Sequence record: MZ436830.1
Source: Escherichia phage JK1
Direction: 5' to 3' (one strand)
Length of the DNA: 64,000 bases
Positions 2,995-62,860 of this stretch are shown here, piece by piece. Under the pieces are notes generated by a model. The model saw only the letters and a program-made list of their open reading frames with translations. It was not told the DNA's origin and searched no databases. The first letter of the stretch is position 1, and each line of letters opens with the position of its first letter. Made by a program: the position numbers and the translations under genes.

Positions 2995-3024
2995 ATAGTA
3001 CCATGGAAGGGTAAGGATGTAAAC
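2995..3024 (-). promoter_or_regulatory. T4-type early promoter (GTTTAC-N18-TACTAT) for the 2688..2963 gene
   Basis: GTTTAC at 3024..3019 on minus, TACTAT at 3000..2995. Confidence 0.5.
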
Positions 3025-3135
3025 TGTTTTGTGAAAAAAATTTTTAAAAAGTTTTGGGGAATTCTAGGGCAGGGAGGGGCAATTAAAAGATAGGATAATA
3101 TATTATAAAGGATAGAAACTAAATGATGTCTAGAG

Positions 3136-3186
3136 AGGCCCGGAAAGGCCTAGATACCAAAAAGCCCCAACCTTTTGGTCGGGGCT
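3136..3186 (-). terminator. tandem hairpins plus U-run after the 3194..3655 gene
   Basis: AGGCC-CGGAAA-GGCCT (3136..3151) then AGCCCCAACC-TTTT-GGTCGGGGCT (3163..3186); minus-strand RNA has the hairpin followed by UUUUU. Confidence 0.55.
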
Positions 3187-3193
3187 AAGAATG

Positions 3194-3655
3194 TTATTTG
3201 ATTTGTTTAGCAGACCAAATGCGATCTTTAATAATTTTTTGGATGTCTTCAACATACTCTAGGTCATGAGCATGTGGATTATCTTTGAAACTATGAGCTC
3301 GCGCAAGTTTCTGGCCTTCGGTCTTAATTATCAAAAGTTCTTTAAGAATTGCTTCATACCTAGAGATAATTCCTTTAGCAATATTTTTTTCTTGTGCTGC
3401 TTTAGGGTCAGCCTTAGGAGCAGGTTTACCAGAAGGTTTTTCGAAAGCCGCACCAGTAGCAACCAGGCTTTTCCAGGCGGTGGTAACATAGTTACCCACA
3501 AAGCCTTCAGCTCTCATATCGTCATAGAACTTGTACCGAGATTCGTCAGAAGCATCTTTATAAGAATATTTACCAGCTTTAATAGCAGCAGTTGCTACAG
3601 CGCGAACATCTGAAGCGGATGCTTCGGTCATTAAAAATTGAGCATAAGTTTTCAT
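3194..3655 (-). CDS. capsid-targeted internal-protein-like protein with divergent CTS (MKTYAQFLMTE)
   Basis: ORF track 153 aa; N-terminus resembles T4 internal-protein capsid targeting sequence MKTYQEFIAE with an L-x-E gp21 cleavage motif; late promoter TATAAATA 30 nt upstream; Lys/Ala-rich body. Confidence 0.55.
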   Translation of the reverse strand: MKTYAQFLMTEASASDVRAVATAAIKAGKYSYKDASDESRYKFYDDMRAEGFVGNYVTTAWKSLVATGAAFEKPSGKPAPKADPKAAQEKNIAKGIISRYEAILKELLIIKTEGQKLARAHSFKDNPHAHDLEYVEDIQKIIKDRIWSAKQIK

Positions 3656-3683
3656 TATTATTTCCTGTGTTAATTAACTCATC

Positions 3684-3691
3684 TATTTATA
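3684..3691 (-). promoter_or_regulatory. T4 late promoter TATAAATA for the 3194..3655 gene
   Basis: Plus strand tatttata is the reverse complement of TATAAATA, about 29 nt upstream of the ATG at 3655. Confidence 0.6.
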
Positions 3692-3721
3692 CCAAAAAGC
3701 CCCAACCTTTCGGCTGGGGCT
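3692..3721 (-). terminator. rho-independent terminator at the end of the tRNA/stable-RNA transcription unit
   Basis: AGCCCCAACC-TTTC-GGCTGGGGCT hairpin; minus-strand RNA has the hairpin followed by UUUUU; near-identical copy at 3157..3186. Confidence 0.6.
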
Positions 3722-3772
3722 AAGCCTTGCGGCAACCTTGTCGGGGTTCCACCTGCTAAGGCAAGTGTTTGT

Positions 3773-3864
3773 ACGAAACGCCGGGATTCGAACCCGGTTA
3801 TTAAGTAGTTGACGCTACTCAATATTTTTAAAAGGCCATATCTCGACCATATCCGAACGTTCCG
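3773..3864 (-). ncRNA. tRNA-like small stable RNA (possibly equivalent to T4 RNA C/D); 5' boundary uncertain
   Basis: Perfect T-arm CCGGG-TTCGAAT-CCCGG (3781..3797 rc) and a 7-bp acceptor-like pairing (3774..3780 with 3858..3864), but no canonical D or anticodon arm could be folded. Confidence 0.35.
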
Positions 3865-4035
3865 TCAAAAACGCTACTCGGCTTATGGCAAAGATATTTC
3901 CTCGAATCGATAATTCGGTGCGCCGTTTCTGCTGTGATGTAAGAGGGCATCAATAAACGTAAAGATTATTAACGCAATTCCTTACTCAGGGAACATCAGT
4001 CCGACGACTTGCCGGTAGCGACCCGGCTTCTTGTC

Positions 4036-4111
4036 TGGTCGAGGCAGTAGGGATCGAACCTACGACCCAGGACTTAGAAGGTCCTTGCTCTTCCTTCTGA
4101 GCTATGCCTCG
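4036..4111 (-). tRNA. tRNA-Arg (anticodon UCU)
   Basis: Cloverleaf folded by hand: acceptor CGAGGCA/TGCCTCG, T-arm GTAGG-GATCGAA-CCTAC, anticodon loop CTTCTAA, CCA encoded. Confidence 0.85.
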
Positions 4112-4115
4112 TATT

Positions 4116-4190
4116 TGGCGGACGTGATAGGATTCGAACCTATAACCAATCGCTTAACAGGCGATCGCTCTGCCATTGAGCTACACATCC
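4116..4190 (-). tRNA. tRNA-Asn (anticodon GUU)
   Basis: 5' GGATGTG-TA-GCTCAATGGCAGAGC D-arm, anticodon loop CTGTTAA, T-arm with TTCGAAT loop, CCA encoded. Confidence 0.8.
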
Positions 4191-4194
4191 AAAT

Positions 4195-4281
4195 TGGTGG
4201 GGAGTGGTGGAGTCGAACCACCCGAGTCGCAATGACAATGGATTTACAGTCCACACCGCTACCTCTACGGGATAACTCCCC
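4195..4281 (-). tRNA. tRNA-Tyr (anticodon GUA), type II with long variable arm
   Basis: 87 nt; acceptor GGGGAGT/ACTCCCC, anticodon loop CTGTAAA, variable-arm hairpin, T-arm GGTGG-TTCGACT-CCACC, CCA encoded. Confidence 0.7.
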
Positions 4282-4290
4282 AAATTAATT

Positions 4291-4365
4291 TGGTGGCCCT
4301 GGGTGGAATTGAACCACCATCTGGCGATTATGAGTCGCTTGCTTGAACCTTCCAGCTACAGGGCC
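4291..4365 (-). tRNA. tRNA-Ile (gene anticodon CAU; AUA-decoding type as in T4) or tRNA-Met
   Basis: Acceptor CAGGGCC/GGCCCTG, anticodon loop CTCATAA, T-arm GGTGG-TTCAATT-CCACC, CCA encoded; Ile assignment by analogy with T4. Confidence 0.7.
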
Positions 4366-4366
4366 T

Positions 4367-4442
4367 TGGTGCTGATTGACGGAATCGAACCGCCGACCTT
4401 CTCATTACAAGTGAGTTGCTCTACCTACTGAGCTAAATCAGC
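4367..4442 (-). tRNA. tRNA-Thr (anticodon UGU)
   Basis: Acceptor GCTGATT/AATCAGC, anticodon loop CTTGTAA, CCA encoded. Confidence 0.85.
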
Positions 4443-4447
4443 AAAAC

Positions 4448-4537
4448 TGGCGGAGGCGATAGGATTTGAACCTATGAGTCGCCGGAGCGACTGCCGGTTT
4501 TCAAGACCGGTGCATTAAACCACTCTGCCACGCCTCC
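4448..4537 (-). tRNA. tRNA-Ser (anticodon UGA), type II
   Basis: 90 nt; GGAGGCG-TG-GCAGAGTGGTTTAATGC D-arm, anticodon loop CTTGAAA, long variable arm, T-arm ATAGG-TTCAAAT-CCTAT, CCA encoded. Confidence 0.85.
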
Positions 4538-4539
4538 AG

Positions 4540-4613
4540 TCTCCATACAAGGATTTGAACCTTGGACCTCCTGATCCCAAATCAGGCGCTCTACCAAACT
4601 GAGCTACACGGAG
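4540..4613 (-). tRNA. tRNA-Pro (anticodon UGG)
   Basis: 5' CTCCGTG-TA-GCTCAGTTTGGTAGAGC, anticodon loop TTTGGGA, T-arm CAAGG-TTCAAAT-CCTTG; no encoded CCA. Confidence 0.85.
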
Positions 4614-4623
4614 TAAATTAAAT

Positions 4624-4697
<74 letters not shown>

Positions 4698-4702
4698 AAA
4701 TT

Positions 4703-4789
4703 TGGTGCGAGAAGTGGGACTCGAACCCACAAGGAAATCATTCCGCAGCATTTTAAGTGCTGTGCCTTTACCAATTTGACCATTCTCGC
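4703..4789 (-). tRNA. tRNA-Leu (anticodon UAA), type II
   Basis: 87 nt; acceptor GCGAGAA/TTCTCGC, anticodon loop CTTAAAA, T-arm GTGGG-TTCGAGT-CCCAC, CCA encoded; 1 nt from tRNA-Gln. Confidence 0.85.
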
Positions 4790-4790
4790 G

Positions 4791-4863
4791 CTGGGAATAA
4801 AGGACTCGAACCTTTGCATCCTGGAATCAAAATCCAGTGCCTTACCAACTTGGCTAATTCCCA
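4791..4863 (-). tRNA. tRNA-Gln (anticodon UUG)
   Basis: 5' TGGGAAT-TA-GCCAAGTTGGTAAGGC, anticodon loop TTTTGAT, T-arm AAAGG-TTCGAGT-CCTTT; no encoded CCA. Confidence 0.85.
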
Positions 4864-4949
4864 ATTATTAACAAAGGCTCTCAAACAAGAACCCTTGATG
4901 ATAGAGGGTATTAATCAGTGCGGTATGAGTTAATAATAACAAATAATTC

Positions 4950-5465
4950 TTAAAGCAAATTAAACATTTTAACGGTCGGCAAAACAATTTCTTTTTCTAT
5001 ATAAGAGTATTTAACACTCTCAACTACACGCAAAAAATCATAATCATAATACTCAGAAGCACTGCCTAAAATATTAATAAGTCCTTCAAGCACTTTATTA
5101 CCATTCACAAAGAATAAGTCAAATACGCGTTCTTCGTCTTCTTCGGATTTATTACCAAGGTCAACTTCTATATCAAAGACCTTTTTAATGAATTCTGGAT
5201 AAAGTTGTTCTGAGAACAGTCCTTCAACCAAGTATTCATAAATAAAAAGCGATTGCTCGCTGAACAAGCCATTACCACAATAACGTTCAGCTTTAGTACT
5301 AGAATGTCTACTTTTAAACTTCTTTAAAAGATATTGAAATTGTAAGATTTCATGCTCTTCTACGCCAAACAGTGTTTTAGTTTTATAGTTGTCACCATCA
5401 TTTTCCCAGGTAGTGACATCAATTACGTAACCCTGCGGAATTGTAGTACCTAAACAAATATTCAT
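4950..5465 (-). CDS. hypothetical protein
   Basis: ORF track 171 aa; in the variable block between tRNA array and gene 57B. Confidence 0.5.
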   Translation of the reverse strand: MNICLGTTIPQGYVIDVTTWENDGDNYKTKTLFGVEEHEILQFQYLLKKFKSRHSSTKAERYCGNGLFSEQSLFIYEYLVEGLFSEQLYPEFIKKVFDIEVDLGNKSEEDEERVFDLFFVNGNKVLEGLINILGSASEYYDYDFLRVVESVKYSYIEKEIVLPTVKMFNLL

Positions 5466-5755
5466 TTGCTCACCATATTAATGTAAGTATATTCAATACA
5501 TTCAAGACCCAAAGGATTCTTGAAAATATCATATTCAAGAGGACCTTTTTCCGTTTCAATAAAGAAATCAAAATTTACTGTATTAAATTTACGGTCTTCC
5601 TTCACTAATTTAACCTGAGAAGATGAACGGTCAATGTAAACCTTTTCAACTTCAAAACATGTTAAAATGCCATAATCATCAATCAAGGCTTTAGCTGCTT
5701 CTTGATCATATTTATATCCATTTTCAATGGATGATACTTTAGCATAAAGAATCAT
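5462..5755 (-). CDS. hypothetical protein
   Basis: ORF track 97 aa; 4-nt overlap with downstream gene. Confidence 0.5.
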   Translation of the reverse strand: MILYAKVSSIENGYKYDQEAAKALIDDYGILTCFEVEKVYIDRSSSQVKLVKEDRKFNTVNFDFFIETEKGPLEYDIFKNPLGLECIEYTYINMVSK

Positions 5756-5757
5756 TA

Positions 5758-6168
5758 TCAGCCTCTATCAACGATAGCATGAGTATGGGCATTTACGATT
5801 TGCCACCAGTCGAAACGATTGGAACCATAATCTGGTTTATTTTCATTTTCTTTAATGATATCACGCAGTTTATCTTCTGTTTCAGCATACGCAATTAAAT
5901 CATCATATCCGCCACAAGGATAATAATTATCACCTGCGAATAAAAGAAAATTTACCTTAGATGGATTTACGTAATAATGGTCTTTAGGATATTTAGTTCC
6001 TCTCCAATCAGTTACTTCAACATAACGGTAAGAAAATCCATTTTTACTTTCAATCCAACTCCACGCTTCAAAAGGAGTATTAAAAACTTTATCAGGTATT
6101 AAATTACCTTCAAAATGAGAAGGATTTGCATAATCCCCGGCATAAACATAATATTCGTTAATACTCAT
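5758..6168 (-). CDS. hypothetical protein
   Basis: ORF track 136 aa. Confidence 0.5.
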   Translation of the reverse strand: MSINEYYVYAGDYANPSHFEGNLIPDKVFNTPFEAWSWIESKNGFSYRYVEVTDWRGTKYPKDHYYVNPSKVNFLLFAGDNYYPCGGYDDLIAYAETEDKLRDIIKENENKPDYGSNRFDWWQIVNAHTHAIVDRG

Positions 6169-6354
6169 CTATTCACCTTTAGAAATTTTATCCATAACGA
6201 TAGCGATTAAACCAATTAAAAATGCTACTACAAGTGAAAACACATTTTCTGCTGTAGTCAATAATCCACATATAAATCCAACAAACATTGAAAAACTAAA
6301 AGCGGAAGCAGAAATTGCAATAGCAACATTTCGAATTAATTCACAACGTTTCAT
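6169..6354 (-). CDS. hypothetical small hydrophobic protein (two predicted TM segments)
   Basis: ORF track 61 aa, AIAISASAFSFSMFVGFICGLL and FSLVVAFLIGLIAIVM; early promoter upstream. Confidence 0.45.
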   Translation of the reverse strand: MKRCELIRNVAIAISASAFSFSMFVGFICGLLTTAENVFSLVVAFLIGLIAIVMDKISKGE

Positions 6355-6382
6355 TTTATTCTCCTCGGTAGTTGATAGGGTA

Positions 6383-6412
6383 ATAGTATCACTACCCTAT
6401 CTAAAAGTAAAC
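6383..6412 (-). promoter_or_regulatory. T4-type early promoter (GTTTAC-N18-TACTAT) for the 6169..6354 gene
   Basis: GTTTAC at 6412..6407 on minus; -10 lies inside perfect 9-bp inverted repeat GATAGGGTA/TACCCTATC (6374..6401). Confidence 0.55.
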
Positions 6413-6646
6413 TTATTTTTTACGAAAAATTGATTTATATTTATCAGCCCATTTCTCAATGACTTTTGCCGGGCCATAGATAACAAAGTAATCGCCAAAC
6501 TCTTCACCACCGAGTTGACCGAAATCATCTAATGCATCACGAAGAACTCCATGAGGCATTTCACCCATTTTATCTTTCTTGCCAGTGTAAATAAACTCAA
6601 CTTTTACATCAGCAGTTTCAGCAATAAATTCTTGATACGTTTTCAT
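6413..6646 (-). CDS. internal protein (IP) with canonical capsid targeting sequence MKTYQEFIAE
   Basis: ORF track 6413..6664; start set at second Met giving MKTYQEFIAE-TADVKV...; this decapeptide is the T4 IPI/II/III CTS cleaved by gp21; mature part differs from T4 IPI as recalled. Confidence 0.7.
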   Translation of the reverse strand: MKTYQEFIAETADVKVEFIYTGKKDKMGEMPHGVLRDALDDFGQLGGEEFGDYFVIYGPAKVIEKWADKYKSIFRKK

Positions 6647-6682
6647 TTTGTTCTCCAATTTCACATTTGTTTTGATAGGGTA

Positions 6683-6712
6683 ATAGTATCACTACTAAAA
6701 CCCCATGTAAAC
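6683..6712 (-). promoter_or_regulatory. T4-type early promoter (GTTTAC-N18-TACTAT) upstream of the IP gene
   Basis: Shares the 24-bp sequence TTGATAGGGTAATAGTATCACTAC with the element at 6372..6395. Confidence 0.5.
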
Positions 6713-6724
6713 AACTTTGTGAAA

Positions 6725-7421
<697 letters not shown>

Positions 7422-7422
<1 letters not shown>

Positions 7423-8147
7423 TATAGTACCTTTAGTGTATTTTTAATTTTAGAAAAAAGTTCTTCAAGAGAACCATCGTTTGTAATTACTAAATCGCCA
7501 TCACGAATTGGCAATCCAGCTTCTGTAATATGTGTATCATTGGATTTTTGACCAGGACGAACTACATGAATTACTGTAGCACCCATCGCCCTAGCCGCAT
7601 CCATTTCATGATCTTGACGAGTATCAGGAACGATATAATAATCATAACCTGAGTTAAATTTATCAAGATAATCTAAAGCAAATAATTTTACCCAATACAT
7701 GCGGTCGAAGTTATTAACAATCAAATCCGTACCTAGGGCTTGCATCAGACGACGGACTGACCATTGATCTTCAATATTATTTATAACGTCAATAATCTTG
7801 TTAAATGCTACGGAATTAACTGATTCTTGTCCTTCGTCATCAAAAACAAACACACCCTTAATTGGGCTTTTACCATTAAGATAGCAAAATGCTTGTTCCA
7901 TAATCGTGATTACTTCTGATTTAGTCAGATTTAAATTAGTCTCACGATCATAGTCAATTCCTTCAAACTCTTTACGAGTTAAGCAAGGATAGTCAGTGTT
8001 TGCTGCAAATACTCCCCATGCATAAGCCAATGCATCCTTAATAGGACCAGCAAGTTGGTATTTAACTGCAGAATAATTGCTCATGATAAAATCAGCAGTA
8101 GTATCTTTTCCACTACGCTTTACACCGCTTAAAAAGATTAGTTTCAT
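7422..8147 (-). CDS. 1: gp1 deoxynucleoside monophosphate kinase
   Basis: MKLIFLSGVKRSGKDTTADF... P-loop; ORF track 7422..8186 trimmed to ATG with GAGGAG SD; 241 aa as in T4. Confidence 0.9.
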
Positions 8148-8172
8148 GTGTTTCTCCTCAAATTTAATTAAG

Positions 8173-8196
8173 ATTATAACACACAAAACTGAAGCA
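8173..8196 (-). promoter_or_regulatory. MotA-dependent middle promoter for gene 1
   Basis: Minus strand TGCTTCA (MotA box), 11-nt spacer, TATAAT, then GAGGAG SD and ATG. Confidence 0.55.
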
Positions 8197-62803: not shown

Positions 62804-62860
62804 GATGTTTAATTGCGGTACAGGTATATAATATCATATCCTGTACCAAAGTAAACTATT

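Follow-up and report, generated by a model that had tools for sequence, protein, structure and literature searches.

The short gene between 57B and trna.4 in Escherichia phage JK1 (MZ436830.1) raises two linked questions: to which family of internal head proteins its product belongs, and whether the identical 24-bp segments on either side of it mark the ends of an exchangeable cassette. We examined both in a 64,000-nucleotide stretch of the JK1 sequence, referred to below as the window, starting from a first-pass annotation that had been made from the letters of this stretch. The gene is, very probably, the Ip6 cassette of a Tequatrovirus at the polymorphic ipI locus between 57B and trna.4, set between promoter-hairpin modules at which recombination exchanges such units.

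The ip6 gene, its protein family and its surroundings

Between positions 4900 and 8300 the gene order on the minus strand is gene 1, 57A, 57B, ip6, trna.4, trna.3, and trna.2, followed by ten tRNA genes. The gene and its flanking anchors comprise the following features:

7422-8186, minus strand: gene 1
7180-7422, minus strand: 57A
6725-7180, minus strand: 57B, the conserved left-hand anchor, identified as Acb1 (anti-CBASS phosphodiesterase family; Pfam PF23474, E 2.6e-60) and annotated 57B in T4 and KIT03
6653-6656, minus strand: Shine-Dalgarno GGAG, 6 nt 5' of the ip6 ATG, from reading of the sequence
6413-6646, minus strand: ip6 coding sequence for a 77-aa precursor, stop included, from the ORF list and its translation
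6617-6646, minus strand: capsid-targeting leader MKTYQEFIAE, Ip6 residues 1-10
6416-6616, minus strand: predicted mature Ip6*, 67 aa, 7.7 kDa, pI about 6.5
6169-6354, minus strand: trna.4 homologue, the conserved right-hand anchor, encoding a hydrophobic 61-aa product (PHROG 1692, E 6e-35) and so annotated in T4, KIT03, and RB18

The interval occupied by ip6 is the one that holds ipI in T4, one of the two polymorphic IP loci. Since 57B encodes Acb1, this variable slot adjoins another counter-defence gene.

Translation of the gene (MKTYQEFIAE/TADVKVEFIYTGKKDKMGEMPHGVLRDALDDF...) agrees with the earlier statement that the 77-aa product opens with the exact capsid-targeting decapeptide, and its first residues are identical to those of T4 IPII and IPIII in 10 of 10 positions. 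Among the ORFs of the window, the strict CTS pattern is matched by ip6 only. The targeting sequence of IPIII is experimentally defined, and the motif of the protease gp21 is L/I-x-E (PMC9026906); this motif is satisfied at the end of the leader (I8-A9-E10, followed by Thr11), where a cleavage site is predicted from the sequence. Beyond the leader, BLASTP revealed no similarity of Ip6 to T4 IPI, IPII, or IPIII; in the comparison with IPI, residues 1-14 alone align, with 50% identity (E 0.02). The first-pass annotation had described the mature region as unlike T4 IPI, a description that is upheld by this leader-limited match and by the assignment of the protein to a separate, named Ip6 family.

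The family assignment rests on a full-length match (residues 1-77) to PHROG 8111 'internal virion protein' (E 3.9e-51) and on tblastn relatives in 245 phage records with 43-100% identity. The named Ip6/ipVI proteins of RB18, VR20/VR25, PST, GiZh, and T6 are 77-100% identical to the JK1 protein (82% for T6 and 87-88% for ip6 of VR20/VR25), and the homologue in RB18 is annotated as 'similar to T6 Ip6'. Ip6 is therefore an already named protein that was described before this analysis; the first catalogue of T-even internal proteins, that of Repoila et al. in 1994, is said to include it. The proteins of T6, PST, RB18, VR20/VR25, and GiZh share with JK1 Ip6 the 77-aa length, the leader, and the place of the last ip gene before trna.4. 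JK1 differs in that ip6 stands alone in its slot; in T6 and PST it is accompanied by ip5, and in KAW1E185 and teqdroes by ipI. Throughout the family the leader is constant, whereas identity in the mature part falls to 71%; the best-conserved stretch is the loop G22-P31, GKKDKMGEMP.

The family is narrow, with 11 clusters among 5.8 billion proteins, all of them near relatives and the named ones from coliphages, and with two true relatives in an exhaustive search of 1.84 billion representatives. A third match from the latter search, P0013, was spurious, being a low-complexity repeat protein. The Pfam search of Ip6 produced no match, and a weak local match to DyP peroxidases in the PDB sequence search (E 0.07, 27-30 residues) was treated as chance. 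Structure modeling predicts a generic ferredoxin-like fold for the mature protein; Foldseek against BFVD returned Ip6 itself and nothing informative, and the model of VR7 Ip6 superposes with a TM of 0.97. BLASTP and structure prediction of the mature protein, both suggested at the outset, yielded no similarity to IPI past the leader and a predicted generic fold, and the function of Ip6 could not be read from its sequence or fold in the Pfam, PDB, protein-cluster, and Foldseek/BFVD searches.

The surroundings of the locus yielded several observations of their own. A search with Rfam over positions 3000-7300 detected tRNAs only. The JK1 tRNA cluster consists of ten contiguous genes and, unlike those of T4, KIT03, and RB18, has no segB homing-endonuclease ORF inside it, and an extra 171-aa ORF (4950-5465, PHROG 2290) that is found in KIT03 and RB18 and is absent from T4 and T6 lies between the cluster and trna.2. 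Between the last tRNA gene (Arg, 4036-4111) and a 153-aa ORF, about 330 nt (3700-4035, minus strand) contain tRNA-like pieces, for instance GGTTCGAATCCCGG; this is the place of the stable RNAs rnaC and rnaD in T4, and the stretch had no Rfam match at gathering thresholds. The 153-aa ORF itself (3194-3655, minus strand) starts with the capsid-targeting-like leader MKTYAQFLMTE/ASASD (MKSYTQFLNE/A in the KIT03 homologue) and is preceded by a late-promoter box, TATAAATA (3684-3691), and by a GC-rich hairpin/T-run terminator (about 3697-3725). Its family, PHROG 2280 (unknown function), occurs in 511 phage records, and all 25 of those sampled across the ranking were labeled 'hypothetical protein' or left unannotated. 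This ORF, which lies away from both classical IP loci, may encode a head-internal protein that has gone unrecognised.

Two early promoters that share a 24-bp segment

An early promoter was located upstream of ip6 (PB) and another upstream of trna.4 (PC), together with the following elements:

6696-6727, minus strand: upstream promoter block AAATAATTTCACAAAGTTGTTTACA, overlapping the 57B stop codon, from the promoter-module table and pairwise alignments
6683-6711, minus strand: promoter PB, with -35 TTTACA (6706-6711), a 17-nt spacer, and the TG-extended -10 TACTAT (6683-6688), from a consensus scan
6672-6695, minus strand: first copy of the 24-mer, covering the PB -10 region and initial transcribed region, exact match
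6415-6431, minus strand: AT-rich hairpin AATTTTT-CGT-AAAAAAT, overlapping the last ip6 codons and stop directly before the PC -35, from the sequence and the fold of an 83-nt segment
6383-6411, minus strand: promoter PC, with -35 TTTACT (6406-6411), a 17-nt spacer, and -10 TACTAT (6383-6388)
6374-6401, minus strand: hairpin GATAGGGTAGTG-ATAC-TATTACCCTATC around the PC -10 box, RNA fold -16.4 kcal/mol, z -3.5
6372-6395, minus strand: second copy of the 24-mer, covering the PC -10 region and initial transcribed region, exact match

The 24-mer TTGATAGGGTAATAGTATCACTAC, which reads GTAGTGATACTATTACCCTATCAA on the coding strand, is present in exactly two copies in the 64-kb window, 300 bp apart, and no further copy with up to three mismatches was detected there (expected 0 in 100 shuffles). 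It starts about 6 nt before TACTAT and takes in the extended -10 element TG-n-TACTAT and the next 11 nt. Similarity between the two copies stretches to 41 nt at 80% identity, so that the -35 boxes are in register too. Both promoters fit the consensus reported for the PST/T4 PeSL promoters, TTTACW-N17-TAYWAT, and are followed by the Shine-Dalgarno sequence and ATG of the next ORF; the -35 box of PC begins two bases past the ip6 stop codon (6413-6415). Both modules have a counterpart in T4 PE1 (X03016), a putative early promoter before ORF2/trna.4: its 5' half is homologous to that of PB, and its 3' half and leader are homologous to those of PC. The initial claim that an identical 24-bp string flanks the gene inside early-promoter elements is confirmed by these two promoters, whose T4 homologues are annotated PE2 and PE1 in X03016. 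The upstream block AAATAATTTCACAAAGTTGTTTACA recurs before each ip cassette in T6 and KAW1E185 and constitutes the junction of the ipI/ip5-cassette indel. Both ribosome-binding sites, of ip6 (6653-6656, minus strand) and of trna.4 (about 6363-6368, minus strand), include GGAG, the motif at which the T4 endoribonuclease RegB cuts early mRNAs.

Compared in the same frame, the other early promoters of the window show 8-16 mismatches to the 24-mer in 24 positions, and the 24/24 identity of PB and PC therefore lies well above the promoter-family background and is not mere consensus. An exact search of IMG/VR retrieved the 24-mer from two contigs only, one of them carrying the same locus in a close relative and the other, a T4-like contig of 170,523 bp, having it in another early promoter close to gene 39. 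In the latter (IMGVR_UViG_641509422_000001, 2791-2814 of the retrieved piece, about 6 kb from the contig start), the 24-mer has TAGGGTA/TACCCTA arms and precedes a 72-aa ORF (MAKVTVNSTREEF...), and the gene 39 homologue follows about 1.2 kb further on. Present at an unrelated early locus as well, the promoter-hairpin module is dispersed, yet rare as an exact string.

Read-through RNA or single-stranded DNA would allow the hairpin around the PC -10 box to form, and the PB copy is degenerate, with a TTT(T) bulge in its 5' arm. An equivalent 13-bp stem with other arms (TGATGAGGTA/TACCTCATCA) is formed by the T4 ipI promoter (-17.4 kcal/mol, z -5.0). When 19 distinct promoter modules from several T4-like lineages were aligned for a covariation test, the stem was paired in 85.8% of cells, compared to 32-62% with the 3' partners slid; compensatory double changes occur at 6 of the 12 pairs across genera, and the observed covariation score was reached by none of 500 shuffles. 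Variants of the arms include GATAGGGTA/TACCCTATC, TGATGAGGTA/TACCTCATCA, AGGGCT/AGCCCT, and AGGGTT/AACCCT. Arbiol et al. describe the stem-loops of IP-locus elements as 'weaker, more AT-rich', and the AT-rich hairpin at the end of ip6 is of this kind.

Layouts of this kind were also observed elsewhere. Three other early promoters of the window (about 2270-2298, 2658-2687, and 62828-62856, minus strand) have the -10 box within an inverted repeat with promoter-specific arms, namely TGGGAGTA/TACTCCCA, AGGCTCAT/ATGAGCCT, and GGTACAGG/CCTGTACC; the T4 ipII promoter has the arms CCTAGAATTGTGA/TCACAATTCTAGG, and T4 ipIII shows the same arrangement. A -10 box within a hairpin looks like a general feature of T4-type early promoters, not one special to the ip locus. 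The trna.4 promoter of one group of T4-like contigs is set inside a longer inverted repeat, ATCTCCATTTG...CAAATGGAGAT, the 3' arm of which holds the Shine-Dalgarno GGAG; the ribosome-binding site would there be masked in read-through transcripts and free in transcripts from the internal promoter. The arrangement of T4 gene e and soc is alike, with a ribosome-binding site that is hidden in read-through transcripts only.

Cassette junctions in related phages

The promoter modules across the locus were listed for eight close relatives and the window, and the following orders were obtained:

KAW1E185 and teqdroes: 57B-PA-ipI-PB-ip6-PC-trna.4
T6 and one IMG/VR relative: 57B-PA-ip5-PB-ip6-PC-trna.4
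The window, KIT03, RB18, and another relative: 57B-PB-ip6-PC-trna.4
T4: 57B-PA-ipI-P*-trna.4

The single T4 module between ipI and trna.4, P*, is a hybrid: it has the 5' half of PB (CATAGGGTTTTAG...), changes over within the 24-mer, and continues as the PC leader (...CTACTGAGGAGAATAAAATG). In a global alignment, T4 and KAW1E185 differ at the locus by a single 300-bp indel, both ends of which fall inside the 24-mer, with flanks that are 95-99% identical. The length of this indel is exactly the repeat spacing in the window, where the unit that T4 lacks can be delimited:

6396-6695, minus strand: 300-bp cassette unit, absent from T4, consisting of one repeat copy, the leader, ip6, and the 5' half of PC

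The window, in turn, differs from KAW1E185 by a single 367-bp indel and from T6 by a single 330-bp indel in global alignments. Both are delimited by the other shared block, AATTTCACAAAGTTGTTTACA, one copy of which overlaps the 57B stop while another precedes the next cassette; it is through this second promoter block that the window lacks the ipI/ip5 cassette. The teqdroes locus has a copy of the ip6 leader before trna.4, and the repeat there grows to 55 bp; this tract is a gene conversion that starts in the 24-mer.

The slot varies widely beyond these relatives. At 36 IMG/VR loci anchored on 57B, the number of ORFs with a CTS ranges between zero and five, and these ORFs belong to many unrelated families; Ip6, where present, is always the last in the slot. 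Junction-specific megablast counts give no clean frequencies of the architectures, because promoter and leader-coding sequence are common to all cassettes. Based on these comparisons, we concluded that the repeats mark cassette boundaries in related phages and that natural recombinant junctions lie inside them, each event being readable as a deletion or an insertion alike. The first-pass annotation had suggested that the repeats could mediate cassette exchange, in line with hypervariable IP loci; the 300-, 330-, and 367-bp indels all end inside shared blocks, and the content of the slot bears out the hypervariability. It had also named two observations that would speak against it, high identity of the mature region to IPI and absence of the flanking repeat at the cassette boundaries of relatives, and neither was made: no such identity to IPI was found, and the repeats are present at those boundaries.

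Proposed mechanism, alternatives and known systems

In the reading that we propose, a regulatory module is repeated along the locus, and the 24-bp repeat, running from the extended -10 to about +11, is its core. Each module starts with a T4-type early promoter, the -10 box of which is in a hairpin loop; behind it come a short leader, a GGAG ribosome-binding site, and ATG. The hairpin of each module could also act on read-through transcripts of the upstream gene. Homologous recombination between modules would delete, insert, or swap promoter-plus-ORF units with their expression signals intact, and the junctions described above are direct evidence for this step; whole cassettes could recombine without loss of signals because every gene of the locus carries a near-identical module. 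Such recombination may take place within one genome, between co-infecting phages, or via excised mini-circles, and unequal crossing-over is also conceivable. No late-promoter box was found directly upstream of ip6 in the window sequence, and one, TATAAATA, is located inside gene 1 (7778-7785). Late synthesis of Ip6 might proceed by read-through, for example from this box in transcripts that would carry the hairpins, or by continued use of the early promoter.

For the protein, we infer from the leader a path through the prohead. The 77-aa precursor would be directed into the prohead scaffolding core by its 10-residue leader, and the prohead protease gp21 would cut after Glu10 (I-A-E) to leave a 67-aa protein starting TADVKVEFIYTGK (Thr11). 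The mature protein would then be packaged with the DNA and injected at infection. Each of the T4 proteins Ip1, Ip2, and Ip3 blocks a different GmrSD, and by analogy the most likely target of Ip6 is a single host defence nuclease of the GmrSD/type IV kind, which it would neutralise.

The identity of the repeats might instead reflect purifying selection on a shared early-promoter/terminator design that plays no role in cassette exchange, with the variation at the locus arising by illegitimate recombination or by homing-endonuclease co-conversion. The design is indeed common, recurring with other arms at three other early promoters of the window and at T4 ipII and ipIII; exact identity is not kept everywhere, the module copies within one genome differing by 0-2 bases in other phages; and segB is situated about 1.5 kb away in KIT03, RB18, and T4. 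However, the 8-16 mismatches in 24 positions at the other early promoters argue that function alone does not require this sequence, and three independent natural rearrangements have their junctions inside shared blocks, one of them an indel of precisely the repeat spacing. We consider this explanation unlikely. Promoter and terminator function could suffice to account for the conservation of the modules, and recombination may be a by-product that is not itself selected. A reading of the ORF as an ordinary early cytoplasmic accessory protein, unpackaged, with a relic leader and active only once it has been made in the infected cell, appears highly improbable. It would accord with the early promoter of ip6, the lack of an adjacent late-promoter box, and the near-neutral pI (6.5) of the mature protein, but the leader equals the experimentally defined IPIII targeting sequence at 10 of 10 positions with the I-x-E cleavage motif kept, and it is conserved family-wide despite the divergence of the mature part to 71% identity. 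In addition, T4 ipI has the same promoter arrangement and its protein is reported to be packaged.

A further possibility, which we regard as rather unlikely, is that the covarying -10 hairpin constitutes a structure-specific recombination site (cf. integron attC) and, separately, that Ip6 inhibits a defence system so far linked to no internal protein, via the invariant GKKDKMGEMP loop. As a cruciform, or folded in single-stranded replication intermediates, the hairpin would draw a phage nuclease or resolvase and lead to breaks at the cassette borders. Such a site would explain why the arms covary while their sequences differ between promoters, as well as the GGGC/GCCC inverted repeats that are reportedly involved at the deletion end-points of Mosig (1998). 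We retain homologous recombination between modules that flank an Ip6 cassette as the preferred reading. Internal proteins are injected to counter host defences; which ip cassettes a phage carries therefore bears on its host range and is relevant to choosing or engineering therapeutic phages.

The IPI* protein of T4 is an injected inhibitor of the GmrS/GmrD type IV restriction enzyme. IPI/IPI* (PDB 2JUB) is encoded at the same locus, 57B to trna.4, behind the same upstream promoter-hairpin module as ip6, and it is likewise a small precursor with a cleavable N-terminal leader. The protein studied here, the type of locus, and the mechanism of recombination have all been described or proposed before. 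Repoila et al. reportedly described, in 1994, some ten IP ORFs that share a conserved 11-residue leader and are flanked by conserved blocks carrying transcription and translation signals. According to PMC2839356 and PMC4122927, that study proposed that conserved promoter/stem-loop blocks mediate the shuffling of internal proteins (Repoila et al., 1994), and recombination at the IP-locus blocks is proposed in later work as well (Arbiol et al., 2010, crediting Repoila et al.; Comeau, 2014). The present analysis adds confirmation on current genomes, base-level junctions, and a quantified test of hairpin covariation, which leave that picture unchanged.

The PeSL (promoter-early stem-loop) cassettes of T4-like phages (Arbiol et al., 2010; Comeau, 2014), to which the conserved blocks of the IP loci (Repoila et al., 1994) are compared as 'PeSL-like', are likewise modules of promoter, stem-loop, and SD/ATG that flank small non-essential ORFs, and they too lie at indel boundaries between close relatives. 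The JK1 locus differs from these cassettes in that the stronger hairpin surrounds the -10 box and is not upstream of the promoter; the IP-locus elements were considered analogues, not homologues, of the RB49 PeSLs (Arbiol et al., 2010). Excised mini-circles have been demonstrated, by inverse PCR, for RB49/phi1 only.

The closest counterparts of the JK1 modules are found in the T4 record X03016 of 1985, in which PE1 and PE2 are given as putative early promoters of the 57B-ipI-ORF2 region, each with an overlapping 'potential stem-loop'; the stem-loop behind ipI carries the label 'pot. stem-loop structure pot. IpI terminator' and overlaps the -35 and -10 boxes. PE1 and PE2 are direct homologues of both window modules. 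The window provides a clean example of modular design, a repeat-bounded 300-bp promoter-plus-ORF unit that T4 lacks in precisely this extent. In T4, PE1 has the recombinant structure, an ip6-type 5' half joined to the trna.4 leader, whereas the window carries the two parental forms with ip6 between them.
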